The notes beneath the pieces are model-generated. The model searched no databases, was not told where the DNA came from, and worked only from the letters and a program-made list of their open reading frames with translations. Below, in pieces: positions 15,806 to 46,807 of a stretch of DNA of 64,000 nt. The stretch spans positions 12,633,263 through 12,697,262 of the forward strand of contig NC_134028.1 in assembly GCF_964204645.1 (NCBI RefSeq). The letters are read 5' to 3'. The DNA comes from Tubulanus polymorphus (lineage: Eukaryota; Animalia; Nemertea). Within the stretch, counting starts at the first letter, position 1, and each line of letters starts with the position of its first letter. A program made the translations under genes and the position numbers.

Positions 15806-15808
15806 ATT

Positions 15809-21510: not shown

Positions 21511-21790
21511 AGTAGGTAAATACGGGATAATGATATTCTTTTGAGATCTGCGTTTTGTGGTCAGGTAATTGCGTCTAAAGTGAGAAATTCGGGCTTTGAA
21601 CTAAGATATGTCCAAAATTTTGTCTGGATAGGCTAGTTTCTTGAGGGCAGTTCTTATATGTTAGATTTCTTTATCTAAAAACATTTGATCACAAATACAT
21701 AGAGCTCGAAGAAAAAATCCTTGGGCTATTCCAATTTTGATGTTCAAAGGTGCAAATGAGAAAAAATGAAGATAGGCTTCAGCATTTGTC

Positions 21791-21921
<131 letters not shown>

Positions 21922-22710: not shown

Positions 22711-23095
22711 AAACTTATTTATCCTTGTAAATACATTCATAAGAGACACATAGTTGAATCAGCCCTAATATGTAAACTTTCGAAATCCAATTTATCTACC
22801 AATTTGAATACTGGTTTTTCTCCTCATAATCAATTATTATCAAGACACATCAACTCTTTATTACATTTGGGTTAATGTCACTATGTGTCACTCTGTTATC
22901 TCCATCCTCTTCGGTCCACTTCACTTAGTTAGTCTTACATAATTTGTTTTTACTCTGAACTGTTTAGAATTGCTGTGGTTTCTACGGTACCCCTTGATGT
23001 TTTTATTGCTTGGTCTGTTTATCTTTAGTTCTGACACATCGAACAATTTTATCGTATAATTTTAAAATTCGAAGTGTGGAATTTCTTCATTTATA
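22711..23095 (+). mobile_element. Inverted, internally deleted copy of the Penelope 3' end
   Basis: Reverse complement of 20765-21219 with the ribozyme segment missing. Confidence 0.75.
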
Positions 23096-23130
23096 ACGAG
23101 TAGTAGTGGGGGTACTATATAGACAAATAT

Positions 23131-24770
23131 ATATAGGCAAATAGTCTGCAGATACCAAAGAGCCAGTTTCCAATATAGGCAAATAGTCTCCAGACACCAA
23201 AGAGCCAGTTTCCAATATAGGCAAATAGTCTCCAGATACCAAAGAGCCAGTTTCCAATATAGGCAAATAGTCTCCAGACATCAAAGAGCCAGTTTCCAAT
23301 ATAGGCAAATAGTCTCCAGATACCAAAGAGCCAGTTTCCAATATAGGCAAATAGTCTCCAGACATCAAAGAGCCAGTTTCCCATACAGGCAAATAGTCTC
23401 CAGATACCAAAGAGCCAGTTTCCAATATAGGCAAATAGTCTCCAGACATCAAAGAGCCAGTTTCCAATATAGGCAAATAGTCTGCAGATACCAAAGAGCC
23501 AGTTTCCAATATAGGCAAATAGTCTCCAGATACCAAAGAGCCAGTTTCCAATATAGGCAAATAGTCTCCAGACATTAAAGAGCCAGTTTCCTATACAGGC
23601 ACATAGTCTCCAGACATCAAAGAGCCAGTTTCCAATATAGGCAAATAGTCTCCAGACACCAAAGAGCCAGTTTCCAATATAGGCAAATAGTCTCCAGACA
23701 TCAAAGAGCCAGTTTCCAATATAGGCAAATAGTCTCCAGATACCAAAGAGCCAGTTTCCAATATAGGCAAATAGTCTCCAGACATCAAAGAGCCAGTTTC
23801 CTATACAGGCACATAGTCTCCAGACATCAAAGAGCCAGTTTCCAATATAGGCAAATAGTCTCCAGACACCAAAGAGCCAGTTTCCAATATAGGCAAATAG
23901 TCTCCAGACATCAAAGAGCCAGTTTCCAATATAGGCAAATAGTCTCCAGATACCAGATACCAAAGAGCCAGTTTCCAATATAGGCAAATAGTCTCCAGAT
24001 ACCAAAGAGCCAGTTTCCAATATAGGCAAATAGTCTCCAGATACCAAAGAGCCAGTTTCCAATATAGGCAAATAGTCTCCAGACATCAAAGAGCCAGTTT
24101 CCCATACAGGCACATAGTCTCCAGATACCAAAGAGCCAGTTTCCAATATAGGCAAATAGTCTCCTGACATCAAAGAGCCAGTTTCCAATATAGGCAAATA
24201 GTCTCCAGATACCAAAGAGCCAGTTTCCAATATAGGCAAATAGTCTCCAGATACCAAAGAGCCAGTGACCAATATAGGCAAATAGTCTCCAGACATCAAA
24301 GAGCCAGTTTCCTATACAGGCACATAGTCTCCAGACATCCAAGAGCCAGTTTCCAATATAGGCAAATAGTCTCCGGACATCAAAGAGCCAGTTTCCAATA
24401 TAGGCAAATAGTCTCCGGATACCAAAGAGCCAGTTTCCAATATAGGCAAATATAGTCTCCAGACATCAAAGAGCCAGTTTCCAATATAGGCAAATAGTCT
24501 CCAGATACCAAAGAGCCAGTTTCCTATACAGGCACATAGTCTCCAGATACCAAAGAGCCAGTTTCCAATATAGGCAAATAGTCTCCAGACATCAAATAGC
24601 CAGTTTCCAATATAGGCAAATAGTCTCCAGACATGAAAGAGCCAGTTTCCAATATAGGCAAATAGTCTCCAGATACCAAAGAGCCAGTTTCCAATATAGG
24701 CAAATAGTCTCCAGACATCAAAGAGCCAGTTTCCTATACAGGCACATAGTATCCAGATACCAAAGAGCCA
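23131..24770. repeat. 42-bp minisatellite, about 39 copies
   Basis: Unit ATATAGGCAAATAGTCTCCAGATACCAAAGAGCCAGTTTCCA with a few recurrent variants. Confidence 0.95.
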
Positions 24771-26029
24771 AAAATGCTTTGCTGATGCGGGCTTTTAATT
24801 TTAAAAATTTCATAACGCAGGTGGTATTTGATTTCCATGAGAAACTAGGGTACTGGTATTTTTTGTGTTACCTACTGTGTCCAAACTGATGGAAAAAATC
24901 ACGTTAAATCGAGTAGCCCTATTTTCCACATAAAATGTTCGTAGGACTGCAGAAAAAGAGTTGTTGAATTGCATTAAGATCAAGAAAACTAACTTTTTGG
25001 CAAATCATGAGATCCAAAATTGAGACAGAAATGTGAAAAAAAATGTTTTAATGATTTCAATTTCAATGGAATTTATTCATCATAAATCCAAAGTATAAGA
25101 TTGTGAATGAATTGATATGAATCGTGTGAGGGACTCAAAAAGGGGACAACAAATTTTAAAAAGTAATGATTCTTTAAATGATGTTTTGCCGGAAATTCAC
25201 TTCCTAAGTCCATGGATTAAAAATCATTTATGGTATCAAATGAATATGACACTAAAATAAATTAGAATTTCATCATCTTGTACATTTGGGACACGGTGTG
25301 CCGGTCGTCTCTATCCGCTGAGTTCGGTGTAATCCGCACACCGTATTTATATTGCGGTACTTAGTACTGTACTTCGCTTGCGCATATGAGAAGCTTGGTT
25401 TCCAATATACGCAAATTTGGAGTGAAGTCAATCTTAAGAATCAGCAGAACATGGCGTCACAAGCCCCGGGGCTTGTCACGCCATATCTGACATGGCGTCA
25501 CAAGCCCCGAGTAAAATGCAGACTATATATAATTCACGCGGAACGAAGATATATGTTCGCGTCGAACGGACCACGTTTTTAAGTCCGATACGACGTGTAA
25601 AACCTGAATGAGATAATTTCAAGTACCGGTATCAATGTGTAATAAATTTCTATTTTTTCTTAACTTATTGTCTAAATATATACTTACTAAATATTGTCTA
25701 AATATATGTACTTATACGTTATTTTGAAGTATTCCGTTCAGTGCAACCACTTTGAAAGAAAATTATCTCCCGTTTTTACTTCATAACTATATTCAGATGC
25801 ATATATATCGAAAGATTTTTATGTAAAATTCTTCGAATATGTTTTTCACAGGTTTCCGTTGTGGTGCGAGACGATCAGGAGATCATCAGCTACATTTACA
25901 TAAGCGATTTTTGTATATTTTTACATAGGAACAAAATAGAAACAACGATTTATAAACCTATTTCTAAGACTTAATGATTATTGTACTAATTTAAGATAAT
26001 CAGTCACAATTATTCATTTATTTCTACGG

Positions 26030-27600
26030 AAAACTGATCGGGTCCTCTCACACCATGTAAAAGGCAAATCGCGATTTTTCTAGCAGTATTTGTTTTTTTT
26101 CTTAGACTTTATGATTATGAACAATATATAACTAATTGAAACTAAAGATATGATTAGTGACAATTAATTGCTTCCATAGAAAACTGATCGCGTACTCTCA
26201 CGCCATATGGCGGCAGAACACTTTGGGGCCTGACACGCCATGTAGAGACAGCGTGGTTTTAGGAGCTTTTTGTAACAGTACTTGCTTTTTTTTCTAAGAC
26301 TAAATAATTGACAAATCATATAGAAGGATTAATCTTTGAACATTTAAGACAATTAGTGACAATTATTCATTTGTTTGTATGGAAAATCGTTCGGGTCTTC
26401 TCACGCCATGTCTCAATTGAATCTATTCTGCAGACCGTTTGGGGCCTGACACGCCATATTGGCTGCAGAACATTTGGGGCCTGACACGCCATGTAGAAGA
26501 CAGCGTGATTCGAGGAGCTTTTTGAAACAATATTTGCCTTTTTTCTAAGTCTAAATGATTGACAAACTGATAAATCTTTGAATATTTATGATAATTAGTG
26601 ACAATTATTCATTTGTTTGTAGGAAAACTGATCGGGTCCTCTCACGCCATGTCTTTATTGAAGTTATTCTGCAGACCGTTTGGGGCCTGACACGCCATAT
26701 TGACTGCAGACTGTTTGGGGCTTGACACGCCATGTAGAAGACAGCGTGATTTTAAGAGCTTTTTGAAACAATGTTTGCCTTTTTTCTAAGTCTAAATGAT
26801 TAACAAACCATGTAGAATGATAAATCTTTGAATATTTATGATAATTAGTGACAATTATTCATTTGTTTGTTCGGAAAATCGATCGGGTCCTCTCACGCCA
26901 TGTCTCAATTGAAGTTATTCTGCAGACCGTTTGGGGCTTGACACGCCATGTAGAAGACAGCGTGATTTTAAGAGCTTTTTGAAACAATATTTGCCTTTTT
27001 TCTAAGTCTAAATATTGACAAACCATGTAGAATGATAAATCTTTGAATATTTATGATAATTAGTGACAATTATTCATTTGTTTGTAGGAAAACTGATCGG
27101 GTCCTCTCACGCCATGTTTCAATTGAAGCTATTCTGCAGACCATTTGGGGCCTGACACGCCATATTGGCTGCAGAACATTCGGGGCTTGACACGCCATAG
27201 AAGACAAATCGCGGTTTTTCTAGCAGTATTTGTTTTGTTTTCTAACACTTTGTGATTATCAAATCATGGACAATATATAAACTAATTGACACTAAAGAAA
27301 TGATTAGTGACAATTAATTGCTTCCATAGAAAACCGATCGGGTCCTCTCACGCTATATTGGCTGCAGAACATTTGGGGCCTGACACGCCATGTAGAAGAC
27401 AGCGTGATTTTAGGAGCTTTTTGTTTTTTTCTAAGACTAAATGATTGACAAACCATATAGAATGATTAATCTTTGAACATTTATGTTAGTTAGTGACAAT
27501 TATTCATTTATTTCGGGTCCTCTCAAGCCATGTCTCAATTGAAGCTATTCTGCAGACCGTTTGGGGCCTGACACGCCATGTAGAAGGCTTAGCGATTTTA
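26030..27600. repeat. Degenerate ~240-bp tandem repeat rich in GGGGCCTGACACGCCAT motifs
   Basis: Recurrent GATCGGGTCCTCTCACGCCATGT...GGGGCCTGACACGCCATGTAGAAGACAGCGTG blocks. Confidence 0.85.
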
Positions 27601-29804
27601 GGAGCCATATGACTGCAGATCACACTAGATTTGAGCCTGGCTCACCATATATGTTTTTCTAACATTATCCATGTTCTTCTAAGACTAATTGATCAACAAA
27701 TCATGTGAAATAGATGAATGATTCATAAGATAGTTAATAAAAAGTTAATGTAAGATAGTTAATTAAAATCTTTATTCTGTAAAACTCATTCAGTAGATAT
27801 ATATGTAATGTTTTTGTATTTTTCATATGCTGGCGAAATATATGATTGTTTAAATTGTGTTTCAAAATGTGTGTACACTGCATTAGATTAACAAACAACG
27901 ATCAATTTCTATTCTGTAAAACTCATTTTAGTGTAAATGCGATGTAATATGTAGTTCTTATTATGTATATATAATACGTTGTAAATCATCTAAGACAAAT
28001 TAATATCCAACCGAATATTTCAACTTCGGAAGAAAAACCCGCGAGACGTAGTCGACGTTTCATCTCCTGCATAGGATTTGATTTTCATTTTACGTTTACC
28101 ACATGGCGTGTCAGGCCCCAATATGGCGTGACAAGCCTCGGGGCTTGTGACGCCATATGCAGCAGGTCTTAAGATTGCCCTAGATGCAAATTTGCGTATA
28201 TTGGAAGTTGTATGGTGGCTCCGCGGCTCGGGACAACCCTTTCTCGCCATGTTCGTCTTTTTCCGGCTCATGCATATGCTAATGAGCGTTTTTAGTCATG
28301 TGATCTGGGCGAGTTTATTTTTTGCGGGTTGGTTAGGTTATGCAAACACGTGTGGCTAGCTACCATTTTGCCGCCAACTCTGAGTCTGAAGAACTCCCGA
28401 ACTCTCGTAAAATGCCGTTTTTTTTAGTCGGGATTGGCAAGAAATCACTTTTGTACGTCTTAGACTGAAGCGTAAGCGTGAGTACAATTACCACGTAGTG
28501 TTATTTAAGATGATGCGCTTTTTGTAAAGAAATTGGTAACGCTTTGAAAAACCGCACATATCTTCGATCCCGTAGCATGGATGGATGATGGAGAGAACCA
28601 ACGGCACCGCGCTCTCCTCGTGTGCGCGGCGCGGGGGGAGGTACACAACGCCTAATGTTGCTCTCTGTCGGAAATGCTCAATAAGGTAAGTCATGGACAG
28701 TAACCCTTCATTCAGCTAGTTCGAAATGAATTAAAGACCTAATGCGCAGTTGCTTTTTTTAGTTGAACTGAATTTTTGGGAAGAGAGTTCATGGTCCGTC
28801 CCGCAGTTTTCATCAATCATGGCTGAATATGTAGGTAGTTGGAAAGGAAAGTAGGACATGGACATGGAGTGGAGGTAGGCCTAGATCAAACTTTTTATTT
28901 ACACAATAACTAGTCCACATATAAGTCGTACTTGTTGGACCCAATCAAATTTATTGAACTTACCCGATGTACGGCTTATAGATAAGTTGAATATTTTCGA
29001 TTTTTATGAAATTTACTTTGGTTAAAAACCGGACCAATGGCAATGCATACTGAAAAAGCAATTTGTGCGAGTTTCACTGAATACCATTCACTGTCCTACC
29101 GGTTTTCAAACTAATCCTATTGGATTGTTCATGTAACATTTTCATTTCAGAGTGTGTTCAAGGAGCTTTGCAAGATTACCCAACATTATTGAATGGTTTT
29201 TGGTCTGTCAGATAATTCAAATGCGCATGACATTGAACGTGGTCAAGAAATTGCTGCAAATCGAAGGATCTATACTTCTTGGTTTATTCGGTGTACGCGA
29301 CAAATCATCCACTCGGTAGATTTAAACCAGGATACAGAATATGACGAAGCAAATTTGTGGTCTCAACGAATGCAGTTAATCATCCTAAGTCTAATCGGTA
29401 ATTTATAGCCTGCTTGGCTGAATGCAATTCCGGCTTATTCTGTTTTACCGGGAGTTAATGGGGTCAATTTTGAGGTCTAAATCCTGAGTTCTGTACAGAT
29501 GGTTCCGTTTGCATTTTTATTGAAATTTCTGTAGTACACCTTCGGTAGGGTTCTGTCAAACAGGTTTTTGATCAATGGATGTGTTTCATCAGTTTAGTAA
29601 AAAGGGAAAAAGGTTTATCTTCGAGACGTGTAGACATTTTCAGCCACAATACAAACAATAATAACATAATATAATATTTAATTAACGTTGAACTGTATTG
29701 ACAGATTACAGACAAGATAACATAGATACATAGAGGTTTGCACTATTTACAATTACATTATTTTTTCATGAACATTAAGCATTACAGTGTACGCAATTGC
29801 ACTT

Positions 29805-30480
29805 AGGCCACACCAAAAGAAAACCCTGTTTCTCGGGCCCGACCGACCCGATATTTCCCCATTTCAAATAATCATTTTCAGAATAAAATATAATCGCCTA
29901 CCGACCCTTTTTCAAAATTTTAGGTCAAATAACTCTTTTCAAAAATATATATGTGGCCGACCGAACTCCTTTCTCGTAAATATTTTTTTACCAAATAATT
30001 ATGTCGGCACAGATCAGCATCATAAAAACATTTTATTATATCGGATTTAAAATTTGATTCTGGAAATGGCGCAGCCATGCTCAGACAATAGTAGATAAAA
30101 ACCGACAATAAAAAGAAAAACTATCAACTTAATTCTATGAGCCATTTTCAAAAACTGATTTAGTTTTTGAAAATTGCTCATAGAATTGAGTTGAAACGTT
30201 AAGCTACCAGATAGTTTTTCTTTTTATTGTGGGTTTTTATCTACTATTGATATTGGACAGCCACTTGTCTATGGAAACCAAAATGCTCAGACAACTTTGA
30301 TGGCGACTTTGGATTATCCTTTTATTATTGTGGTCTACTAGCTGTTAATCATATTCCTGACTAAAAATTTAGTCCAGTAAAAATTATTTACGGCAACCTA
30401 CCCACTGATAGAAGAATGAATGATATTTTTTTTCTATAAAAAGTAAAAAAAATGTCCTGCCTACCTACCCATTTTGGTGA
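29805..30480 (+). mobile_element. Harbinger-like MITE fragment; an inverted partial copy lies at 31930-32150
   Basis: TTA-GGCCACACCAAAAGAAAACCCTGTTTCTCGGGCCCGACCGACC start; shared internal segment in the opposite orientation. Confidence 0.6.
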
Positions 30481-31135
30481 TTGCCCTGCCCAAGGAAATT
30501 TCACTTAAAAACAAATGTGTAAACATGGCTAATTATGGCGAACAACAATTGTCGCCACTTGGCCGTATCGAATATTTACGGGTCAGATAAAAACAAGAGC
30601 CCCAAGGGGCACTCGGACTAGTCAATACCTAATAATTAACACAATAGCATATCAAGGTCATCCATCCGATTTGAGAAAAAGCTTTTTTCTATATTCTTTC
30701 TATTTTCTATATTTCTTTCTTCTATATTGAAATAAAATTTTAGATCTTAAAATAAAACCCGGAAGTAAAACAGTTGAAATTACCGCGGGTTCACGTGAAC
30801 ACCTGCTGATCTCTGCGGCGAAGCCAATCATAGAGGAGTCTTTGCTTTCTGATTGGCTTTTTAAAACAGATATTATTGCGATCAGATTTTCGTGAAAAAG
30901 CTCATAAATTTTAACGAGGCCCTTTTTCAAAATTCAGCTACGTAGAGTTTGGAGAATGGGTAATGCTTTAATGAGTGATTTGTATGAATATATGCTCAGT
31001 TGCACAGTCAAAGAGCCTTCGTTCTGGAAACAATGTCATTTAAATTCGATACTTAGAAATAAACCAGTTTAGATGATATATACATGTACATCAAATGATT
31101 GAAGTAAATGAATTTCTAAGATATGATTGGATAAT

Positions 31136-32271
31136 TTACGGTTCCAAAAAGTACATTGATTTGCATAGAATATCTTCACATCTTTTGCATTTGAAATTTT
31201 CTGAATCATGATTGGTTAAACAAGAAACATGGAACCAACGATCACACATACTACAAGCTACCCATTCAACCAGCTGATCATCTCCACAATCATCCTTCTC
31301 TCCACACACTGCACAAACCTCATTCTCGCTCTCATCTCCCTCACTAGATATATTTCCATCTTTCTCACTGTCATGTTCCGCACCCTGATTCTCTCTCTCA
31401 TTTTCTCTCTCATCCTCACTCTCATCACTATCATTCAGATTTATTACAATATGATTAGTTTCAAAATTTTTTACTAGATTGTCTGATAATTTGTCCTTAA
31501 TCCATAATTCGTTTTCGATTTTCTTCACATGATCCTCGTAGTTTCTCCAATTTTCCGCCGTGACTTGTTCTCTCCCTTCAATGATTAGCTTTTCCACATC
31601 CTTCAGTTTATTTGTTGTGTTTCTTTTCTTTGCATATGCTTTCATCTGGTGCCAAACCATTTCAATTGGGTTGAGCTCGCAATGTTTGACTGGTAATATC
31701 AGTAGCTCGTCTCCAGAATCGAGAATCAGCTGCTCTGATTTGTAAAGTTTATTTGGTGACTGAGTTTGACATAGTTTAACAAGTTGTTGTTTGTTTAGAT
31801 TTTGGTCGTATGTCACTTTTTTCTTTTCCAACCATCTCTGAAAAAGAAAATTTAATGTTATTAGCATCATAAGCATACCAAATAGATACTTCATTCCTTG
31901 AACCTGTATGGCACTGTAATAAATGAATGATCCCAAAATGGGTAGGTAGGTAGGACATTTATTTTCTGTATAGAAAAAAAATATCGGTTATTCTTCTATC
32001 AGTGGGTAGGTCGCCGTAAATAGTTTTTACTGGACTAAATTTTTAGTCAGGAATATGATAATTATATTTTATTCTGAAAATGATTATTTGAAATGACGAA
32101 ATATCAGGTCGGTCGGGCCCGAGAAACAGGGTTTTCTTTTGGTGTGGCCTAATGCAATGGTTTTCTGAGATGTTTTCTGAGACATGGGGTTTTCCCTTGG
32201 TTTAAATCTTATATGATGGAATTTATTATTTTGAAACCAGTTTTGAAAAAGTGATTTCATAAATTCTGATG

Positions 32272-32321
<50 letters not shown>

Positions 32322-35300
32322 ATATGTCTTTAAATTTTTCAAAACTGGCCATCTACTTTTTTTAATACCTTGATCTCTTCTTTACTCTGTGAGCTTTTTG
32401 GAGCCTGACTTTCCTTTACTAAGCAGAGATGATATGACGCTTGGTCCATGACTATAAGGGAAGGTTCCTCTAATGCTGGAATCAATTGGTCCTCGAGCCA
32501 TGTTTCGAATATGTCTCCTGAAAAGCACATAGAATATGATTAGTTTCGAAATTGATGATTGATGTAGGCTGTAGGCGATCAGCATTTTTCATACGACTAT
32601 TAGAGAGTGATATTTTTGATGGGTATACTTTTTTGAGATATCAGTTGTCACACAATCAGAGCAATTTATGCTATGGAGGGGCTGGCTGCTCAAAGGTTGT
32701 TTTAAATCAACTTTTGAGCAACCGGCCCCTGGGCCTAGTTTCACAAAAGTTTCACAGTTTGAGTTTAACTCAAACTTCATGTTTTCAACGAGGACAATAA
32801 TTCAAACTTAACCAATAGGACCCTTGCCAGATATTTACCACCAAAACTGACTGAGCTAGGCAATCTGATATGCTCTGAAGCCAAGTTGAAATAGACATTA
32901 ATATGGATATTGAAAACAAAGACTTAATAATATTTACCATCCATTTGGTGATGATAATCTCCAGAACCATTTTTTGCTTCAAAAACCAGGTTTGCACCTG
33001 GCACAAAGCCATTTCGACTTCCTGCATCTAAAATGATTAGGCGTGCACCTTTACCATTTTGCTCTACTCGTCCGCAATCCTTACATGGTGGATGGGAAAA
33101 GTTTGTCATTCCTTTTTCCCAATTTTCTGTCCATTCGCCTGTTGAAGATAATAGTGATTCCAGGTTTAAAAACAGGTAACATACAATGTACTTTGTCTTA
33201 GCAGAGATAAGATGCATGTGAAAAATATGGGGAAAAAATTTCTGAAAACTTAATTTTTGTATGAAAATTTTTTTTCGAACATTTTTGCCTGGTAATTTCT
33301 TTATACAGTCAACCCCGATATACCGCCCTCCCATTTACCGCCATCCCCGCCTTCTGCCAGGTTTTCTCAATGTAATATCTCAATACCAATACATAGTAAT
33401 ACACCCCCGATACACCCCCTATATTCTCTATACCGTCAATATTGTTCTGCATCGATGTGGGCAGTATATCGTGGGGGTTGACTGTAGTTTTACTTGTAGG
33501 CTGTATATGTTCTTCTATCTGTGGGCTCTAATGCTAAGTTATTCTACTATTCAACACCCCCATATGGTGACCATATAGTTTAACTAAGGCTAAAAAAAAT
33601 TGATACCTTGTTTCTCCGCTCTGCTGAGCTTAAATGTTGACCCGGCCGGCCGCCTATCTACTTTATACATTACTTTTTTAAAAATCGTGATCAATTTTAC
33701 CATTACAGACCCGGCCGCTATAGAAATGAACTGTTTACAAAATTTATTACATATTACAAAAATGACCCAGCCGCTGCGGAGAAACAAGGTATCATTTTTG
33801 TTTAGCTTAATGTCCTTAAAACTCACCAAAATCATGGAAGATGTCATGAGCTACAACTTTGTAATTGATTGTGGTAACAAAATATGCATAGGTACAAATG
33901 TAATATAGAAATAATAAGTTATTGTATTATTCAACGCCCCCTGGTGGCCACATGCAAAAACCAATGACCTTGAAACTCACCTAAATCATAGAACACGTTA
34001 TGGGCTACAACTTTCCAATTGAATATAGTAACACAATAATGCTTAGTTATCAATTTAATGTGGAAAAACTTTTTCCTACCTACGAATGAGTACTGATGAC
34101 ACCAAGATGGCCGCCAATTGGCTGATCAAAAATACCTGTCTCAGGTATAAAACATCCCTTTCCAAAGAATATCAATCAGCAATTGCAATGAGAAATGGCA
34201 AACCAGTAGGAAGCTACAGGACTCGGAATTCGGGCCAAAATTAACATTTTTGGGCACTTAAAAGGTCCTAGGACGGCCATCTTGAGTAAGGTTGACCCAA
34301 TTTTTGTTATACTGATGGGCCCTTGGTAGATTCAAATACAAACGAATGATCAAGGTAATTGATCAAAGCGTCTTCAAAATTTCCCTCCAACACTTTAAAA
34401 ATGTGTAAAAAGTGCTAATTTTGGCGAACATCAATGGCTGCCAGTCGGCCATCTTGATTGTGACAGGGCTAGTTTTTGGGCTGAAGATGTGTCTAGGGTA
34501 GATACATGTATAAACCAAATATCAAGACATTACCTTGAAGCGTCTTCAAAACTTCCCAAAATAACTGGATTCCGTCTACGGACGGACGAAAAGTGAACGC
34601 AATAGCCCGCTGGGACTAAGGCTAAACAAAAATGATACCTTGTTTCTCCGCAGCGGCTGGGTCATTTTTTTTTAAATATGATGAAATTTATAAACAGTTC
34701 ATTTCTATAGCGGCCGGGTCTGTTATGGTAAAATTGATCACGATTTTAAAAAAAGTGATGTATAGGGTAGATAGGTTGCCGGCCGGGTCAACATTTAAGC
34801 TCAGCAGAGCGGAGAAACAAGGTATCAATTTTTTTTAGCCTAAAGTCCCAAGTGGGCTAAAAATATGGCATTGTGAAAATGTGGGAACCCTTAATCCCTA
34901 ACTTAGGCTTAGTGTTTTAAAGTTTCACCTTGCATTGTATCTCTTGAATTTATCCTCGTTTCATCCAAATATACGATCTGTTTGTTCTCCTGTCTAGCTT
35001 TTTTTATTTTCCGTAGATAGTTTCTTCTTTGGCGTACAATGTCGGGTCTTTCATGACTAAAGCTGAAAGAAGATACAATGATTTTAGATATTGATCAATT
35101 TGACACATCAATCTTAGGGCATACTGGAAGGGAACAGGGATAATCATTATACAAAGGCCTATGAAACATCAGATAATTAATCAAAATTATCGGATATAAA
35201 ACTGTTTTGCCTACCGTTTTCCACTTTTCTTCAGCCACCTGAACCCAATTCTCCTTATCCATTTCCATATTGAAACTCTTTTCAAGTCAACTGATATTTT

Positions 35301-37070
35301 GTTTTTGATTCTCGCATATATTCTATAGAGATAAATACATAAATATGGAGATCAAATATTTCAAATCTGCTGTACCAAGATGGATGGTAAATTTATAGTT
35401 ACATTTTTGTTGTTAGGCTAAAAAAAATGATACCTTGTTTCTCCGCAGCGGCTGGGTCATTTTTGTAAAATATGATGAAATTTATAAACAGTTCATTTCT
35501 ATAGCGGCCGGGTCTGTTATGGTAAAATTGATCACGATTTTAAAAAAAGTAATGTATAGGGTAGATAGGTGGCCGGCCGGGTCAACAAGCTCAGCAGAGC
35601 GGAGAAACAAGGTATCAATTTTTTTAGCCTTAATATCCATATTTGCACATCCCTCTCAGAAGGGATTCGAAAATGATGGCATCAAGACTGCTGCAGTATG
35701 AAATCCAGCTTGACTAGCCCTAGTGCACAGCTTTGCTGAAAACTTGCTTACCAATTATCAGATAACCTGATCACTTAGGGATCATTCATTTATTACGTAC
35801 GCATGAAATTTGAATTTTTCAACCCCCCTCCCCTCTGTACGCAAAATCGGCCATTTTTTTCATATACACTAAGCATCACAGAACGCAATCGCACTGACCC
35901 CTCCCCGAATGCATACGTAATAAATGAATGACCCCTTAGGCAAATTTTGCGGATAATTATAGTTGAGATAACTTGGACAATGGACATTGATAAGCTAATG
36001 ATGAGCAATGCTTATGTATCCGGGCTACTCTGGCTGGATTTTTGGCTGTGGCGATCTCTTGAAGCAATCATGTTGGAATCATTGTCAGGGAGGATGTGTT
36101 TTGTCTGGCAGTTGTTGATTCTTACCCATCTATTGTAATGTATTTCTTATCTCTGGTCATATCATGAATTTCTCTTCGGATTATATCTTGATCAAATTGG
36201 TCTAGTTCTATAGATGGACGTCCGGTTTTACTAGGTTCAGTTACTGAAGACTTTTTTTCTGAAAATCCATTGAAAATTGAGTTCAAGTTCATTTATCGAA
36301 CCAGCAGGGTTTGCAAAAAAGAGTAAGGCTAAAAAAAATTGATACCTTGTTTCTCCACTCTGCTGAGCTTAAATGTTGACCCGGCCGGCCGCCTATCTAC
36401 CCTATACATTACTTTTTTTTAAATCGTGATCAATTTTACCATAACAGACCCGGCCGCTATAGAAATGAACTGTTTACAAAATTTATCATATTTTATAAAA
36501 ATGACCCGGCCGCTGCGGAGAAACAAGGTATCATTTTTGTTTAGCCTAACTAAAAAGTTTGTAGGCCTATTGTATGATTTTCTATAGGCCTGAATGTAGA
36601 AAACCGGTCTTTAATAATATGTTTTGAAACATGTCTTTTTAATCAAGATTTTTTTTGTAATAGGCCTATGAAAAATAATTACCTTTGTATTTTTGAAGTG
36701 TATATAGTTTATTACTTAAAATGAAATTTATAACAGGCTTTCTCTAGGCCTAAATAATTATATGAAAAATAAAGTGTTTTTAATTGATATGATTGCCATC
36801 AGTTCTCTTCAAATCAATGTTTTTGTTTTTGTGTAGTGAGAGATCCTTCAGCTCGTGGCTAATTATAATAGTAAATAAACAACGCATGACTTCCTTCTAT
36901 GACATACCGTAATTCCTCTTAATCGAATCTGTGGATACTTTTTTCTTGAGAGCGGCCCGAATTTTTTCGTAGGTGTTGTTGTTTGGGATATTTCGGCCTG
37001 TCCTCTCTTCTCGACGTAGGTGTGATGTGAATAGATTTATGATTTCCCATTGTGGTTTTGAAAAGCTCAT
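31136..37070 (-). CDS. Sailor-type DD83E transposase with C-terminal acidic tract and PHD finger, 7 exons, 529 aa
   Basis: Exons 37070-36908, 36258-36126, 35322-35215, 35062-34929, 33138-32938, 32517-32369 and 31837-31136 (1590 nt) all join in phase across GT-AG introns; motifs LDQFD..IIRREIH, IGFRW, IVYLDET, GKGARLII..AGS..GF, GDYH, IVMDQASYH, HCELNPIEMVW; PHD CAVC...CSMC..WFHVSC...CKRC. Confidence 0.88.
33306..33484. mobile_element. pogo/Tigger-like MITE
   Basis: TA-CAGTCAACCCCGATATA...TATATCGTGGGGTTGACTG-TA. Confidence 0.75.
33588..33807. mobile_element. PIF/Harbinger-like MITE, copy 1 of 4
   Basis: TIR GGCTAAAAAAAAATTGATACCTTGTTTCTCCGC; TAA TSD. Confidence 0.85.
33810..34864 (+). mobile_element. 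Helentron/HINE-like non-autonomous repeat (3' part)
   Basis: GGAC microsatellite, then terminal hairpin TAGCCCGCTGGGAC-TAAA-GTCCCAAGTGGGCTA followed by an A-run; the hairpin loop is split by MITE copy 2. Confidence 0.5.
34620..34840. mobile_element. PIF/Harbinger-like MITE, copy 2
   Basis: Same TIRs, opposite orientation; TAA TSD. Confidence 0.85.
35416..35629. mobile_element. PIF/Harbinger-like MITE, copy 3
   Basis: Same family; TTA TSD. Confidence 0.85.
35778..35935. mobile_element. PIF/Harbinger-like MITE, second family
   Basis: TTA-GGGATCATTCATTTATTACGTA...TACGTAATAAATGAATGACCCC-TTA. Confidence 0.8.
36327..36546. mobile_element. PIF/Harbinger-like MITE, copy 4
   Basis: Same family as copies 1-3; TAA TSD. 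Confidence 0.85.
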
Positions 37071-37226
37071 TGTGTTGCGCGTTCGTTTGTACGTGTTTAC
37101 TATTAAGCGATTAACCTGAATGCATATGCATAAGCGCACTATTGCAACACTGTGATTCGTTGAGCATTAATTAAATTCAAAAGCTACCACCCCTACGCAG
37201 AAATTCCGCATCATAGCGCATGCGCA

Positions 37227-37452
37227 CATGAGCCGGAAAAAGACGAACATGGCGGTTGTTTTCGCCGATTTAAGATGCGATTTCCTACACTTCTTACCAA
37301 TCCTTCTAAGCGGTGATAAACGGATAAAATATCGGATATTCATATGTCGTCCGCGACTTTTGTGGTCACGATAAGACCTAAATGAGGTATGTCCTACAAA
37401 TACTAAGCAAGATATCGCGAAAAACAGGTCTCATACATTAATAAATAGACTT
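37227..37452. repeat. Right TIR of the Sailor element
   Basis: Reverse complement of the joined left-TIR pieces. Confidence 0.9.
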
Positions 37453-40400
37453 TAGGGCTCAGTCAATGTCATGACTCCTTACAAGTGCGTTCCGTTGCAC
37501 AATATCGTCCCCCCGTACAATCTCGCAGGATATCTCGCAACAACTAGTCTAGACCTCACATATCTTCAACCTCACAGTCTCGAACTAATAAAAACAAAAC
37601 CACGAATGATGCGACTCTCCTCTCCTCATGTTCCTTCTTCTTCAGACGTGCCCAGCTTCCAAAAACATAACAGACTCGCCATGTAGAAAATATATATACA
37701 ATAGCCATGTCATTAGGCCATTTATTAGGTCGATAAATACAGCATCAACAGGACATTTCCATAGTACAGGACTATGGAAAAATGCATACAAACTGCTCTC
37801 AACCTCGCTCTAAGAGGTTTAACCAATTATTATAAATACATGTATTGCGAAAATTGCAATAAAATATCATGGTGACAGATGGAAATCGCAAGTATCAGCT
37901 TCAATAGGCTATCAAAGCTGGAGAGAAAGTGATTAAGTTCACCCAGCTTCAGAGTTGAAGCAAGAAATGCTTCAGATGCTTTGAAATAAGGATCTCAGAT
38001 AGAAAGCTTCAAATCATGCTTTCAGACGACTGCCAAAGTAACTATTCAGCTAGGCTGTATAAAATTCAGCTAGGCTGATTGGTTGAAAAACCACAGCGAG
38101 GCTCAGCTCTGCACATAAATTATAGAAACAGGAATCGAACCCGCACGGATAATTATTATGAAAACCGCGAGAACTACGCGAATCGAAGCGAAAATAGAAG
38201 TCCCGCGACAGAAATAAAGGTAGATAAATCACTCAAATGTGAATCTATCCACCCCGCGCCTAAATGGTTTAATTAATACAACGCGACATTGCATAAGAAA
38301 GGAAGGCAAAGGAAGAGAGGGGAGGACACTGAAGCGAAAGAAAACAACAAATCAAATCAAAATCAATTTTCGCTACATAAGCCTCGAATTAATTTTCAAT
38401 TATATTTAACACTATTTACACAGTCTGTCATTTCGAACACGTTCACTAAGGTTCCCGGACAACGCGGAGTTCGGGACAAACACGGCGTCAGGGGGGACAA
38501 CCATGTCCGCCGAGGACAACGCGGCGTTCGCCGGGGACAAGACCCTGGACACCAATAAACCCGTGGACAATGTCGGGCAAATAACTATTTACAATGAATT
38601 AGCGCGGTCCGGGTGCCCGCACATTATGAGTTTTCCGGTTTGCTTGGCTACCCGTACTGGCGGGGTAGTCTAGAGAGGCCAGTGAAAACTCCGGTTTGCT
38701 GAACCACCCCTCTTTGCGGGGATGCGGTATGATGTTTGATCTGACAGTTTCAAGTGGTTAATGGCTGTTTCAAGTGCTTACAACGATGCTTATTACTTCA
38801 TGTGGTACATGGTGGTTTAAAAAAGATTTCGTAATAATACGCTCACCGCGTGGGCTTCGTAGAAAGACCACTACCTGTGAACTTCCCAAATTTTAATAGT
38901 CCTGTCCGATTTGGTTTCATCCAATTGAGAGACTGCCTTTTCCAGTTAGGGCATTTTTGGATCACGTCACTCCAGGAAATGACTTAACGCTTTTGGGCCC
39001 CTTCGTCGGTTCCACATGTTTCATTTGAGCTATAGACCACAATGGTGACACCATGATGGTCAGTAACTGACCAATTGAGATATCCCCGAGTCTGAACACT
39101 TGACTTCGAATTTCGCAAATTTATCATGTAATGTTTGTCTTCAAACTACTAAGGAATCATCATTGCAAATTCATCACTGACCACCAATGACCAATTCAAA
39201 CTTCTCGAATATGAAAACGATATACCGCGTTATGGTGTCAAACTAGAAAGGATTCGCCATTAAAATTCATAAATTGACCATCACTGACCACCACTGCCCA
39301 AGTGAAACTTCTCAAATATCGCGGTCGAATTCGTAAGTGCTTGTCGTCGTATTGCTATTTCTAGTAACCAGCAGAAAGTTTTGCTACTGTTTTCGAATGG
39401 CGTTGACATAATGGAAAATTATTACCCATAAATGGACACATCCGGATCACAGCACCTCATATGCCGCAGTGCGTTATTTTCACTGCATAGTAATGCTAAT
39501 ACATAAACTTTTTTACTACTTGACTCGAATCATCTGAACAGTACTGCGTTTGAAAACTCAACGAATAGAAAATGTTTGCGGGAAGCGCCTACAAATAAGT
39601 TATAGGCCTAATAAGATTAATTAATCGATGCATGAAAAACAATTAAATCTCAAGGTGACTAACACCCGTCTTTCAACCAATCTGCGCGATACCAATTAAT
39701 TAAATCATTAAACGCATTGGGTTCCTAATATTTGAAATCATGTGATACAATAGTTGTTCTTTAGACTTGGTCACCGAGGCATTAACCATTCCTTCAAGTT
39801 TTGAAAATTCGATGGTAACGCGGATTCTTCGCCTCTAAAAACTGTTTCGTTAATAGTTTTCTTTATATGAAAAGTGTTCATAGGAATTGAAATTTGGAGT
39901 GATACCAGTCACAGCTGTAACCCTTTTTCATTGTCAGTTCTTTTTTGGAATTCAAGTAGATTAGTGAAAATATCAATGATGAAGTTCACTCATTATATCA
40001 AGTACCGTTTTTACTGTCGCATGCTAGTCGAAACAAAAAGATCTATCCAACTGCATATCTTCAGGTATAAACTGTGATATCCTTCAGTATGTTATGAATA
40101 TCTTTGAAAATTTGTGTTCTAGTATAATACCCGAAGGTTTAACTATCGGACACATAAAAGATTCGCCATAATCAAAGTTTTTAAGAAAATCTTTCTTCGA
40201 GAAAGAAAGATCTTTAAAAGAACGATTGGCGTCAAACTAATCCATAATGGACTATTGTGAATTTATTGAATAATCCACCTGAGAAATTTAAAGATTTCGA
40301 AGCGAAATTTATTCATATAAATCAAAAATGCATGAATAACTTGACGTTATTTGCGGGTCACATGCGTGATTCGTTATAAACAAGGTTAAATTCCTAACGC

Positions 40401-40580: not shown

Positions 40581-41196
40581 AGTAATAGGGATAATAGGCT
40601 TTCATTCGAAAGGTCGAGCTCGTAAAAAAATGAAAATAATAATTATTTACAGTTGAATTAGTCGCGCACACTCCTAATTCAACATTAAATTATTATTATT
40701 TTCATTTTTTTACTCACTCGCCCCTTCAACCTTTGATATGAAAGCCTATTATCCCTATTACTCTTAAAATATTCATATACATGAATAACATTTAAATTGA
40801 CAGATTATTCAATATAAAAGTGTAAGCTCTTATAGAATAGATATATAGATATATTTACAACATTATTTCAATATTCATATTTGTATGAGTTAGATTTTTA
40901 AACATTAAAAGTGTTAGTAAAGTGTGATTGAAATAATACATGATATAAATCATTGAACTTCTAAAATCAATTTTTAAAAAAAATTTGATATTAAAATGGA
41001 AGCAAATAAGTACTACTGTCCAACATGTAATATCAATATAGATAAATCCCAAAAAGCAAGACACAATAAAACTAAAACACATTTAGAGAATAAATTGAAA
41101 CTAGAATATAAAGATGATATATTAGAAACTAAATTAGATGAATTAAAGAATGAAAAAGAAACATACAAATGTGATACATGTAATCAATCATTCAGT
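40581..41196. repeat. Polinton left TIR (begins with a 182-bp hairpin and includes the polB 5' end)
   Basis: Reverse complement of 59809-60430. Confidence 0.93.
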
Positions 41197-44100
41197 GATA
41201 AAAGATATTATAATGAACATTTAAAATCTAAAAGTCATATTAGAAATATGAATAATGATATTTTAGGTGAAGATTATTTTGATAAAGATAATGATAAGAA
41301 ACAGAAGACAATTAAAAGCATAAAAAATAAATTAAACAATAAAAGACCATACATGGAAGATGTAAGAAATTATATTAATTCATTAGATAATAAAAAAGAT
41401 ATAGAGATAACCGAAGCATTTAAAAGTGATATTGGTCCAGCAGCTATCGAGTTTAAATTTCATAAAGGAAAAACATTAGAAGAAAATAAAAAACATTTAG
41501 AAAATATGAAAGATATTATAAAAATAATTACTGATGTTGAATATCCTAAAATAAGTATATCAGTTAAAGTAAAGTTTATAAAATCTGAAGATAAACCAAT
41601 ATATAATATAAATTCTCATTCACAACATATTATATCTAAACAACATATAGATGATAAATTAGATAAATGTTATAATGAAGTAAAAACTAAAATAGAAGAG
41701 AAATATTTTGAAGGATCTGGTTTAATATTTGATGAAATAATATTTATGACTACATGTTTATAACACAAAATATAATAAGTTAACTAAATCAAAACCAATT
41801 GATGAAAATAATGTATCATATTATAAAGAACCAGATATTGAAGCATTGAGTTATATTAAACTACCATTTAAAACTAATGCTGTTATAAATGTACAAAATG
41901 AAGATGATAAATGTTTTCTATGGGCTATAATAAGTTGTTTACATCCAACAGAAGATATTACACATAGTTGTAGATTAACTCATTATAAACCATTTGAAAA
42001 TAATTATAAGATAGATAAGTATCCTGTTATAATTAAAAACATCCCAAAAATAGAAAGAGATAATAATTTAAGAATAAATGTATTTGATTTAATCAAATTA
42101 CCAAATACAAAAGGTAACAATATAAAACATTATACATTAGAACCTTTATATCTATCAAAAAATTATGATTCAAACGATGTTATAAATATATTATATTATG
42201 AGAATCATTATATGTGGATTAAACAAATAGATTTATTCTTTAGAACAGAAAGTGATCACCATAATAAAATATATCTATGTAGAAAATGTTTACATAGATT
42301 CAGTAATGAAAGTACATTATTAAATCATAAACAATTATGTGAAAATCATGATTATTGTAAATTAGTTTTACCAAATGAAAAAGATAAAATATTAGAATTA
42401 AAAAAATATGATTACAAAAATAAAGTACCATTTGTTATATATGGAGATTTTGAATCATTAAATAAAGAATTAACTGATCAAGATAGAAAAGAAATATATT
42501 AAAAAAGAAAGAAATTAAATTCTAATGAAAATGATTTTTCAGATGAACCACCAAAAACAAATACTATTAAAAAGATTCATCAATCAGCTGCAGCTTTCGG
42601 GTTATATATTAAATCTGATTATCCAGAACTAATTGAAAGTGAATATTATGATTATAGAAATGAAAATGTTATCAATCATTTTTGTGACTTATTAATTGAA
42701 TATGAAATAAGGTTTAGTAAATTATTGAATACAAATATAGAAATTATAATGACAGAAGAAGATAAAGAAGAATTTGCGTTTGCAGATAAATGTTATTATT
42801 GTGAAAAGATATTTAATTATAAAGATAAAAAAGTAAGAGACCATGATGATTTGAATGGAAAGTTTAGAGGCGCCGCACATGAGAATTGTAACTTACAAGC
42901 TAAGAAAATTAATTTTGTACCAGTTATATTTCATAATCTATCAGGATAAGATGCACATTTATTTATCAAACAGTTATGCCATAAAATAGAAGAAATCAAT
43001 AATGAAATAAAAAGATTAAATTCAAATAGATCAAAAGATAAAATACCAACTTATAAATTTAGAATGTTAGCTAAAACATCTGAGAATTATATATCATTCC
43101 AATTTGGGTGTTTCAGATTTATAGATTCATATAGATTTTTAAATAGTTCATTAGATAACTTATCAAAATCATTAGTTGATGATGAATTAAAAATATTAAA
43201 GCAACACTACCCAAATAATGATGATTTTCAATTAATGAGATATAAAGGAGCAATTCCATATTCATTTTATAAATCACATAATGATTTTAACATAACTGAA
43301 TTATTAAAAGAACAATTCTATGATGAATTAAAAAATGAATATGTTAAAGATGAAGTATATAATAGAACATTGAATATTTGGAATCATTTCAAAATAGAAA
43401 ATCATGGACAATTAGTAGATTCATATCTAAAATCAGATGTATTATTATTAACCGATATATTCGAAAGGTTTAGAGATGTAAACCTAAAATATTTCAATAT
43501 TGATCCTTGTCATTGTTATTCAAGTCCAGGATTAACATGGGATTGTGGATTAAAATTTACAGATATAAAAATGGATTTGTTAACAAATATAGATCAATTA
43601 CTATTATTTGAAAAATCTATAAGAGGAGGAGTTTCAGGTGTATTAGGTGATAGATATTTCAATGTAAATGATAACCCTGGATACAAGTTATTATATATAG
43701 ATGCAAATAATTTGTATGGTTGGGCAATGATGGAACCACAACCTTATGGAGTATTTGAAATAAGTGAAGTTTTACAGAATGAAAATAATGACAAATTTGA
43801 TTGGAAGAAAAGAATTCTAGATATTGCAGATGATTCAGATACTGGTTACTTTTTTGTTGTAGATTTAGAATATCCTGAACATATTAGATTTAAATCTAGA
43901 AATCTAGCTTACTGTCCCGAACATAAAACTGTAACTCATGAAGAATTATCAAATTACCAAAAAAGAATTAAACCCGAAAATCATATTCATACAGAAAAGT
44001 TAATGGTAACTCAAGAAGATAAATATAATTATGTAGTACATTATAGAATGTTAAAGTTTTATCTAAAACAAGGAATGATCCTAAAAAAAGTACATAGATA

Positions 44101-45030
44101 TATTTCATTTAGTCAATCTAAGTGGTTAGAAAAATATATAGATTTAACACCAAACAGAGAACTGAAGCTAAAACTGATTTCGAAAAAGATTTCTTCAAGT
44201 TAATGAATAATGCATTCTATGGTAAGACTTGTGAAAATATTAGAAATAGAAATGATATTGAGTTAGTTAGTAATGGTAAAAGAATTAGACATTTACAAAC
44301 ATATCCTAAGTTCATTGGTAACAGAATATTTAATGAAAATTTAGCTGCTGTTAAAATGAGAAGAACATCAATGAAATTTAATAAACCAATCTATGTTGGC
44401 GCTTCAGTTCTAGAATTATCAAAATTACTAATGTATGAATTCTATTATAATGTATTACAACCACTTTTTGGAGAAAAACATATAGAAATATTATATTTTG
44501 ATACCGATTCTTACATATTAAAGATAAAAACTGATAACATAACTAATGATTTAAAAACATTAAAACATTTTGATTTTAGTAATTATCCTAAAGATCATGA
44601 ATTGTTTAGCAATGGTAATAAAAAAGTTCCCGGTAAATTCAAAGATGAATTAGGTGGTGAAGAAATGATTGAATTCATTGGTATTAGATCTAAAATGTAT
44701 TCATATAAAACTAAAGAACATGAATCTAAAAAGTTAAAAGGAATAACCAAAAATGTAGTAGAAAAGAATATTCATTTCAAAGATTACATCAATTGTATAT
44801 TCAATGAAGAAGTTAGAAAACATAAGATGAGATGTTTAAGATCTGAAGATCATGAAATGTTTATTGAAGAAATTGAAAAGATAAGTCTAAACCCATTTGA
44901 TGATAAAAGATATATTTTAGATGATGGAATTCATACAGTTGCTTATGGATGTAATTTAGATGAATACTTAAAATTTAAAAGAGAAGAAACAAAAGAGAAC
45001 GAGATAATGAAAAGAATTCTAACGTGTTAA
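40996..45030 (+). pseudogene. polB: Protein-primed family B DNA polymerase (frameshifts and stops)
   Basis: Pieces 40996-41763, 41846-42502, 42725-42949, 43064-44203 and 44122-45030; N-terminal C2H2 fingers; NVQNEDDKCFLW; Exo motifs YGDFES and FHNLSG*D; EndoVII-like CYYC..VRDH....G.FRGAAH..CN; Pol motifs YIDANNLYG, KLMNNAFYGK, YFDTDS. Confidence 0.95.
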
Positions 45031-45059
45031 TCAAATTTTAATAAAAATATGTATTATAA

Positions 45060-45401
45060 ATGGAGAGTAAACAAGCAAACAGTGAGAACAACAAATTAAT
45101 TCTAGATAGAATTAAAGATATCACAAATGTAAAATCTGTAGATTATAAATTCAAAAAGTTAACAGAATTAACAATTCATAAGAAATATCTAATTACAAAT
45201 ATTGATACAGTTACTAATAACTATGGAGATAAATTAGTTATACACTTAGAATATGAAGGATTAAAAGGAAATACGTATAAATTCAGAACATATTTACCGG
45301 ATAGATTTCATAGATTATCAAGCGAAGACTTAGAAGAATTATGTTCTGGAGATTTCTATTTCGTATACAAAGTAAGAATGAAAAAGGGCACCATGAAATA
45401 G
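45060..45401 (+). CDS. Polinton hypothetical protein (113 aa, possible OB-fold)
   Basis: Open ORF with TAAATG start; beta-strand pattern KY.IT.I..V...YG..LVI.L...YLP; the fold is my inference. Confidence 0.65.
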   Translation: MESKQANSENNKLILDRIKDITNVKSVDYKFKKLTELTIHKKYLITNIDTVTNNYGDKLVIHLEYEGLKGNTYKFRTYLPDRFHRLSSEDLEELCSGDFYFVYKVRMKKGTMK

Positions 45402-45429
45402 ATTTCGAATAAGAAAATATGTAAAATAA

Positions 45430-46188
45430 ATGGCGGAATTAAAAGAATACAGAATATTTGTTGATTCTAGAAGGCTTACAAATTATAAATCTCATAATTT
45501 ACTAGTACAATTAGATAGAGAATTTAAGATTTGTGTAGATTTAAAATTAGTTAATATAAGTTTATGTAATTCTTTTTATAATATATCGGATAAAACTATT
45601 GATCATAATGCTTTTATGATTCATATTAGAAATGTAAATAAATGGTTTCACCTAATTTTAAAACCAGGATTATATAATTTAGAAACACTAGCTCAAGAAA
45701 TTAATAGAAGAGCACGGTTGAAAATTAGAAGTGAAGATAAATTTTTAATTAGAATTATAAAAAGTGATAGCACAAATAAAATTAAAATAAAGGTATATGA
45801 TGAAAGTCAACATGCATTTATAGTGAGAAAACCTATAGCTAAACTGTTAGGAATTGTACCAGATACTGTTACAGGAAACGTAGATGGTAATTCAAATATA
45901 ATACCTTTTACACACTTTTATATTTATTGCAATTTAATCAAGCCTACAAAAACTTTCGAAGCAACTAAAGAAACAATTTGTAGTTCTAGTATACTAAATA
46001 TTTTACCGCTAAAAAATGTTAAACAATTTGGAACTCAAATAAATTATAATTTAACTGAATGTGATTTTAAACCTTGCATTCCTAAATTTAATAATTTTAA
46101 ATTAGAAATAAGAAATCATAATGGACATTTAATTGATTTGAATAACTTTCCTGTAATTTATGAATTAGTTATAAGATGTAGAGAGTAA
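45430..46188 (+). CDS. Minor capsid protein (penton)
   Basis: IFVDS, NSFYNI, PGLY, LLG, YIYCNL, SIL..LP, IR...G.LIDLN pattern typical of Polinton single jelly-roll pentons. Confidence 0.75.
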   Translation: MAELKEYRIFVDSRRLTNYKSHNLLVQLDREFKICVDLKLVNISLCNSFYNISDKTIDHNAFMIHIRNVNKWFHLILKPGLYNLETLAQEINRRARLKIRSEDKFLIRIIKSDSTNKIKIKVYDESQHAFIVRKPIAKLLGIVPDTVTGNVDGNSNIIPFTHFYIYCNLIKPTKTFEATKETICSSSILNILPLKNVKQFGTQINYNLTECDFKPCIPKFNNFKLEIRNHNGHLIDLNNFPVIYELVIRCRE

Positions 46189-46204
46189 TTTTTTCACTAT
46201 ATAA

Positions 46205-46783: not shown

Positions 46784-46807
46784 ATGCATAATTATTTTAC
46801 TAAATAA

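Follow-up and report, generated by a model that had tools for sequence, protein, structure and literature searches.

Transposases of the Tc1/mariner type insert at TA dinucleotides and show little preference for one kind of chromatin over another. What, then, might a PHD finger do at the end of a cut-and-paste transposase, and in what state is the element that carries it? The question is raised by a locus in the nemertean Tubulanus polymorphus, in a window of 64,000 nucleotides of contig NC_134028.1 (the window being the whole stretch of DNA that was analysed), where a putative transposase gene of seven exons (31136-37070, minus strand) ends in a PHD finger. The reading favoured here, which is held on balance to be probable, is that the locus is a recent, now probably immobile 9.4-kb copy of a Sailor (DD83E) transposon, of which the PHD finger is predicted to tether transposition to promoter-type chromatin, i.e., chromatin in which histone H3 is di- or trimethylated at lysine 4 (H3K4me2/3).

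The Transposase Gene

The initial annotation had joined seven minus-strand exons, with intron phases 1,2,2,1,1,0 and GT-AG sites, into 1590 nt without a stop, and recomputation gave the same predicted gene: all six introns have GT-AG sites, and the joined exons encode 529 amino acids (aa) and a stop codon, with 0 internal stops. Exon 1 (37070-36908, 163 nt) holds the N-terminal helices of a DNA-binding region and the ATG, which lies 157 bp inward of the right terminal inverted repeat (TIR), close to the 160 bp first given. Exon 2 (36258-36126, 133 nt) holds a second helix-turn-helix region and, like exon 3 (35322-35215, 108 nt), is identified by the profile and alignment of relatives. The first catalytic aspartate (D168) is in exon 4 (35062-34929, 134 nt), a CxxC-containing insert common to bivalve Sailors is in exon 5 (33138-32938, 201 nt), and the second catalytic aspartate (D271) is in exon 6 (32517-32369, 149 nt). 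Exon 7 (31837-31136, 702 nt) holds the catalytic glutamate (E355), an acidic linker and the PHD finger. Exons 4 and 7 each carry a copy-specific residue: R171, where reads and relatives have tryptophan, and D339, where they have histidine.

A profile of 38 long relatives, from which the proteins of sister copies were left out, gives the seven-exon model 432 bits. In a six-frame scan of 28245-37455 with the profile, the seven exons, in correct order, were the top 7 among the 11 matches listed; exon 1, the weakest, has an E of 0.34 by itself. Since a profile made from relatives only yields all seven exons in order, the exon set exceeds what chance would give. The model aligns with Mytilus P0173 (36.6% identity over aa 39-520, E 7e-104), with junctions 3-6 in well-aligned sequence that has no large gaps. 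A public gene model from the same species (P0002, XP_074659592.1) matches aa 190-529 without a gap (333/340, ~98% identical), and junctions 5 and 6 are therefore used identically; P0002 is, to judge by this match, a sister copy of the window transposase. Read runs X1, X2 and X6 cover the introns as DNA would, and X7 and X8 gave almost no matches.

The Catalytic Core and Membership of Sailor

The joined exons give the catalytic triad as it was first read, YLDET / VMDQASYH / LNPIE, with 83 residues between the second aspartate and the glutamate. This spacing lies within the Sailor range of DD78-111E (PMC8533490) and recurs in 30 of the 31 PHD-bearing relatives that could be scored. The motifs IVYLDET, LIVMDQA (with Q for N) and HCELNPIEM correspond to the Sailor consensus I/VVYLDET, VIIMDNA and HCELNPIEL (PMC8533490), and aa 7-133, to which the profile of relatives gives 60.7 bits, fit the N-terminal DNA-binding domain of Sailor with its two helix triads. 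The transposase falls in the Sailor clade of the tree, its nearest rows including the family that matches Sailor-Mo-Mytcor; P0021 from Amphibalanus, which by eye matches an element of PMC8533490, is in the same tree. In these trees the two IS630 outgroups form long branches, which makes the rooting unclean, and there were no Tc1/mariner rows. The predicted structure of P0002 (mean predicted local distance difference test score, pLDDT, 82) shows the catalytic domain joined by a disordered acidic linker to a finger that is folded, and a fold search with it placed the Sleeping Beauty catalytic domain first and PHD fingers next, all with E > 0.001. Because motifs, spacing, tree position and the 229-bp inverted-repeat ends all fit, the transposase is, on its sequence, a Sailor (DD83E), and the DDE phylogeny agrees with the assignment first made.

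Two motifs that might be taken for decay, LPVKH and LDAG, are common to relatives, which rules that interpretation out. Transposases of the PHD lineage have an insert after the first catalytic aspartate, with a complete or partial CxxC (exon 5, about 33060-33100); it could possibly form an extra metal site, in a part of the model that has low confidence.

Relatives were sought in several other collections. Word-based protein searches found 1 relative among 456 candidates with exon 7 as the query and 0 of 2 with exon 1, and the ESM Atlas gave no usable match. No relative was found in viral contigs or in 601 stretches of prokaryote genomes (0/601), and plasmids gave no match at 1e-5, with distant IS630 only at E up to 10.

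The PHD Finger

After the catalytic domain, in the same exon and the same frame, there is an acidic linker (aa 430-467, net charge -14) and then a PHD finger (aa 471-516) of the C4HC3 type with all eight zinc ligands (8/8), which is the order that the initial annotation had described. Pfam PF00628 matches the finger with E 3.5e-4 and 21 bits, slightly below the 24-bit cut-off; the pLDDT of the model over the finger is 77-90, and PHD structures are among the matches of both fold and sequence searches. That the finger is a chance neighbour of the transposase is ruled out by the shared exon and frame and by its presence in relatives.

Which ligand would such a finger bind? Two of its residues, W488 and W497, align with the cage tryptophans of KDM5 and AL3. 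When a PHD profile of the lineage was compared with the PDB, the best matches were the fingers of AL3, KDM5B and KDM5A, with both tryptophans aligned, and both are present in 36 of the 44 PHD-bearing relatives. In the third PHD finger of KDM5A (PHD3), trimethylated lysine 4 is held between W1625 and W1635 (PMC9172573), and in ARID5 it is held between W688 and W697, which are nine residues apart like W488 and W497 (PMC13361950). The finger is itself acidic (net charge -7), so a basic histone tail would fit it better than DNA. In view of the KDM5-like match, the kept two-tryptophan cage and the acidic finger, tethering to H3K4me2/3 is favoured: it is plausible that the finger binds H3K4me2/3 and guides targeting.

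Distribution of the Finger and of the Introns among Sailors

When exon 7 was searched exhaustively, there were 1837 matches at E up to 0.001, with the finger in 7 of the best 150, and among 214 collected relatives a PHD finger was found in 44, many of which are near-copies. The carriers are from five Mytilus species, a Ruditapes cluster and ENA/JGI sources, and are about 35-40% identical to the window protein. The finger is thus, as far as these sequences tell, a trait of a lineage of Sailors, and the PHD-bearing lineage proposed in the initial annotation is upheld. The catalytic region of the published Sailor-Mo-Mytcor (PMC8533490) matches that of P0176/P0177/P0179 by eye, and published Sailors therefore fall in the PHD group. 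The terms "PHD" and "zinc" have 0 occurrences in the main text of PMC8533490, none of the 8 proteins in its Fig. S4 has a PHD finger, and a term check of PMC10294476 and PMC8556966 found no PHD in Sailor; in the literature searched (Repbase, most subscription papers and Table S6 lying outside it), no description of a PHD finger in Sailor was found.

The history of the finger was followed in trees from which the PHD columns had been left out. A quick tree in which the shared insert was kept (66 Sailor-like rows and 2 IS630, with 9 near-copies dropped) grouped 15 PHD rows with a Shimodaira-Hasegawa-like approximate likelihood ratio (SH-aLRT) support of 99. Once the insert was removed (43 rows, after near-copies, fragments and long rows had been dropped), the PHD proteins came out in one group with five that lack the finger (80/95). 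These trees do not establish a strict single PHD clade, as P0105 then joins the five PHD-less rows; a single clade of the ten PHD rows was left unrejected by the approximately unbiased test (P 0.40). When the C-terminal half is taken by itself, 5 changes are needed and P0046 is placed elsewhere. From these trees, the likely history is a single gain of the finger, followed by loss. The fragment P0046, from a PHD-bearing Sailor, groups with the PHD-less P0025, outside the main PHD group, and may represent a second, independent gain.

The claim of an intron-rich lineage stands for the window family, with its six introns, but not for its relatives, which have introns at other positions or none across the catalytic and PHD regions. 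Sequence L006 is unbroken across junctions 5 and 6 of the window gene, L009 has two introns, at other places, and in the Mytilus and Limnoperna records of PMC8533490 the first catalytic motif is unbroken, with acceptors before it. Since the introns of relatives differ or are absent, the six introns are a trait of the window family and not of all PHD-bearing Sailors. A wider reading would be that a lophotrochozoan Sailor clade captured a KDM5-type PHD finger that reads H3K4me3, giving an IS630-Tc1-mariner transposase that targets active promoters with a single protein, and that the family persisted by vertical descent for long enough to gain six introns and remained mobile as it did so; this account is held to be less likely than not.

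Comparison with Known Systems

The nearest known elements are Sailors [see Shi et al. 2021, PMC8533490], in particular Mo-Mytcor and Mo-Limfor (DD83E), which have in common with the window element the motifs YLDET, MDxAxYH and HCELNPIE, the DD83E spacing, an acidic tail and TIR ends of the form TA-xx-GT; Mo-Limfor has the same CxxC insert. The window element differs from those described there by the addition of a C-terminal PHD finger, by six introns where open reading frames (ORFs) are described, by its size (9.4 kb versus 1.4-7.0 kb), by its host phylum, Nemertea, which is outside the listed phyla, and by ends that fit a duplication of TA rather than TATA.

A C-terminal PHD finger on a DNA transposase with 1-4 spliceosomal introns is found in Ginger1-9_HM and Mutator, which belong to other superfamilies and in which the finger is beside an Ulp1 protease (PMC2836005). 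The piggyBac, PiggyMac (Pgm) and Tpb2 proteins have a C-terminal cross-brace zinc finger on a DDE/D transposase, and the cysteine-rich domains of Tpb2 and Pgm, both domesticated, bind the H3 tail; however, these are non-canonical PHD fingers without the two-tryptophan cage, and the domain of piggyBac binds DNA (PMC8086355). KDM5A/KDM5B PHD3, Alfin-like proteins and ARID5 have the pattern W-x-x-C ... W-x-H with both cage tryptophans, but they are host chromatin regulators with about 24-27% identity in structural alignment, and one aspartate of the R2 pocket is serine in the window protein. TLEWI is an IS630-Tc1-mariner transposase with several GT-AG introns in marine invertebrates including bivalves; it differs in being DD36E, in lacking TIRs and in having 2-5 introns, and no PHD finger is mentioned in the text available (10.1101/656579). 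Fusions of PHD fingers with intron-bearing transposases are thus already known in other superfamilies, and a PHD finger in Sailor is apparently new within the literature searched.

The Ends of the Element and the Target Site

A 229-bp inverted repeat at 37227-37455 pairs with three pieces on the left (7711-7864, about 17299-17355 and 28246-28272). The right (5') TIR, 37227-37452, about 226-229 bp, is intact and is followed by TA and then G; the outer piece of the left TIR, 7714-7864, is preceded by C and then TA, and its middle and inner pieces match the right TIR. The left TIR is broken, as first noted, and what splits it is a Gypsy long terminal repeat (LTR) retrotransposon (7865-17294, minus strand; LTRs identical over 1486 bp but for one gap; 4-bp duplication GAAG) and a second, inverted-repeat element (17356-28245, 8-bp target duplication). 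With these insertions set aside, the two arms are 99% alike, with a single substitution and a gap of one base between them, and the element measures 9.4 kb. Its 3' non-coding interior occupies 28273-31135 (minus strand), with the first polyadenylation-like hexamer at 30972.

Both ends read TAAA then GTCTA, i.e., the TA-xx then GT of Sailor TIRs. In the table of PMC8533490, the TAAA+GTCTA end of St-Pytoli is identical to that of the window element and the TIRs of Mo-Halrub are 235/237 bp. L009, an unrelated Sailor contig, has the same nine-letter terminus, CTAAAGTCT, at its start and its end, and the read depth of X6 is 87 in the TIR bin versus 33-61 over the unique interior (~2x). The ends of L009, St-Pytoli and Mo-Halrub and the doubled depth all argue that the TIRs belong to the transposase; TIRs of another superfamily such as Kolobok are ruled out by L009 and the Sailor ends in that table. 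A related non-autonomous element at 5025-7048 (5028-7045 by its narrower bounds) has the same type of end (C-TA ... TA-G) and is, by its ends, likely a substrate of Sailor transposase.

In both of these elements only TA is repeated directly at the two ends, with C and G as its flanks, and there is no 4-bp direct repeat. A duplication of TA within CTAG is known for IS630. The four-letter block at Sailor ends is inverted and constant within a family (TATT...AATA, TAAA...TTTA), as seen at 7711-7720 and 37446-37455 in the window and at 1-25 of L009. Sailor has been described with a 4-bp direct TATA target duplication (PMC8533490), and the Aphanomyces records of the same source begin with TATT and end with AATA. 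Because the block is inverted, the published 4-bp duplication is read here as TA plus two bases of the TIR, and Sailor probably duplicates TA at its target, in this case inside CTAG, and not TATA.

Copies, Selection and Decay

How many copies are there, and did they arise by transposition? Over the unique interior, variant shares in the raw reads of X6 are about 0.2-0.9, and in X1 the majority contigs have a depth of 97-239 and the contigs with the window's own letter about 35-40; with contig depth taken as a rough guide only to copy number, this suggests roughly 4-6 close, young copies. A contig of depth 138 in X1 extends 27 bases into the miniature inverted-repeat transposable element (MITE) of intron 1, under the 31-base standard, which suggests that sister copies share this MITE.

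The copies might instead be duplicates of a larger segment or host element that carried an already immobile Sailor, with no recent transposition. This would account for the equal depth of the element and 1 kb of its right flank in X6 and X1, and for the similar majority differences from the window in both. However, the first 21 letters of the main flank contig of X1 are at odds with the TIR junction, which suggests that other copies of the flank are without a Sailor; the TIR arms are 99% identical, and elsewhere an unrelated gene model has a further copy (88-89% alike) spliced into it. Duplication of a segment is considered improbable. The sequence outside the right TIR (37456-38537) is a low-copy repeat with element-like depth in X1 and X6, and GGACAA motifs are repeated at about 38455-38570. 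The gene model just mentioned, P0001, is an aminopeptidase isoform of which the first about 62-65 residues are from exon 7 of the diverged copy; it is possibly a transposon-derived chimeric transcript, or a prediction artefact.

The initial annotation had observed that every MITE of the gene span is in an intron and had taken this as a sign of selection on the protein. The observation holds: four MITE copies of 220-230 bp, in intron 4 (33585-33810, with a 3-bp TAA duplication, Harbinger/Tourist-like; and 34617-34843), intron 2 (35413-35632, TTA duplication) and intron 1 (36324-36549), all of the same family, and other repeat blocks are all intronic. Taken alone, the four-copy family is rejected as proof of selection, as 98 of 140 TAA/TTA sites are intronic and the chance is 0.70^4 = 0.24. 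For all 11 blocks, bounded approximately by eye, avoidance of exons has a P of 0.001-0.03, and selection keeping insertions out of exons at some time is supported. The four MITEs are 92-95% alike, with their TAA/TTA duplications at three places in introns and at one within another repeat (33585-36549), which suggests that a Harbinger-type family hopped locally.

Selection on the protein of this copy was not upheld. Compared with the majority of X6 reads, among 40 of 598 variant rows (a small and partial sample), the window copy has seven private coding differences, 5 replacement and 2 silent, as expected under neutrality (P=0.41). Two are at near-invariant residues: R171 occurs in 0 of 67 aligned relatives (W in 53), and W in 23 of 23 X6 reads, and where the window copy has D339, histidine is present in 137 of 177 relatives, in P0002 and in 68 of 68 reads. 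With private changes at W171 and H339, the window copy would since have begun to decay. As insertions avoid exons while private changes look neutral, the target of purifying selection was most likely the ancestral lineage in its mobile phase, ahead of the spread of the copies, rather than the window copy. An active autonomous transposon has two intact TIRs and an intact transposase; this copy does not, since its left TIR is broken twice and the private changes alter W171 and H339.

Could the gene have been domesticated, i.e., co-opted and kept by host selection, like the intron-bearing TLEWI? An open frame, six introns, a broken left TIR and insertions confined to introns (with the P values and approximate blocks given above) would be in keeping with this, and TLEWI, with 2-5 introns, was proposed as co-opted (10.1101/656579). 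Against this, both TIRs are present and 99% alike whereas TLEWI is without TIRs, there are several near-identical copies in the reads, the private changes (5 replacement/2 silent) hit W171 and H339, and the LTR element that breaks the TIR is very young. The signs of a domesticated gene (single copy, TIR loss and purifying selection on the locus) were not found, and domestication is judged very improbable.

The Proposed Mechanism

In the mechanism proposed for the family, spliced mRNA would yield a transposase that binds the TIRs via its N-terminal helix-turn-helix region and cuts and pastes the element into TA, here within CTAG. The PHD finger, on its flexible acidic tether, would hold nucleosomes near the target during target capture. 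Purifying selection would have acted while the family was mobile, and the window copy would have been decaying since.

Several points weigh against this reading. The finger is absent from most Sailors, among them a subclade that falls within or next to the PHD group, and since PHD-less Sailors exist, the finger is dispensable for transposition. The residue after the third cysteine, which in KDM5A is in the H3R2 pocket, is aspartate in 37 of the 44 PHD-bearing relatives and serine here. The zinc fingers of transposases elsewhere bind DNA or unmodified H3 (PMC8086355). The locus is repeat-dense, with no recognised host gene among 36 long ORFs, and is unlike a promoter. Junctions 1-4 of the gene model are supported by homology only, and the count of private differences is a small one. 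The right flank (37522-38537, ~1 kb) has a depth of 33-59, the same as the element, and what multiplied may have been a larger repeat with the copies inside it.

The finger might then have a role other than targeting: binding of TIR DNA, dimerisation or stability, or binding of H3 independent of methylation. The cysteine-rich domain of piggyBac has a PHD-like fold and binds the DNA of transposon ends, and that of PiggyMac binds H3 regardless of methylation (PMC8086355); in the fold search BHC80, a reader of unmethylated lysine 4, was 5th, and Sailors without the finger transpose. However, the finger has a net charge of -7, both cage tryptophans are kept across lineages about 35-40% identical, and the top profile matches are the AL3 and KDM5 fingers. 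Such a role is regarded as unlikely, and tethering to H3K4me2/3 is preferred.

Other Elements in the Window

The Gypsy element at 7865-17294 is very young, with LTRs 99.9% alike and with gag and pol present; at 9627-10793 it has a same-strand frame of 388 codons with zinc-finger-like spacing of cysteines and histidines and no Pfam match at 0.001. The 10.9-kb inverted-repeat element at 17356-28245 contains a GIY-YIG (Penelope-like) fragment (21064-21600), a 42-bp tandem array (~23000-24800) and an array of 240-bp units (~26000-27700). A Polinton/Maverick-like element lies at 40581-60432, with 660-bp inverted ends, an integrase and a fragmented type B DNA polymerase.

Significance

The ends in the window, together with those published, suggest that the TATA duplication of Sailor is TA plus two terminal bases. 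Transposases that are split by introns, and their tails, are missed by surveys based on ORFs. A PHD-bearing Sailor touches on the unsettled question of how a cut-and-paste element selects its chromatin: PHD-bearing and PHD-less Sailors in related genomes provide a natural comparison of insertion sites, and the finger is a small domain suited to work in vitro. The PHD finger of RAG2 reads methylated H3K4 and directs a transposase-derived nuclease, as a separate subunit of a domesticated recombinase derived from Transib. If the finger of these Sailors does read H3K4me3, it would be a parallel to RAG2 by independent capture, and the protein would be a naturally chromatin-tethered transposase scaffold.

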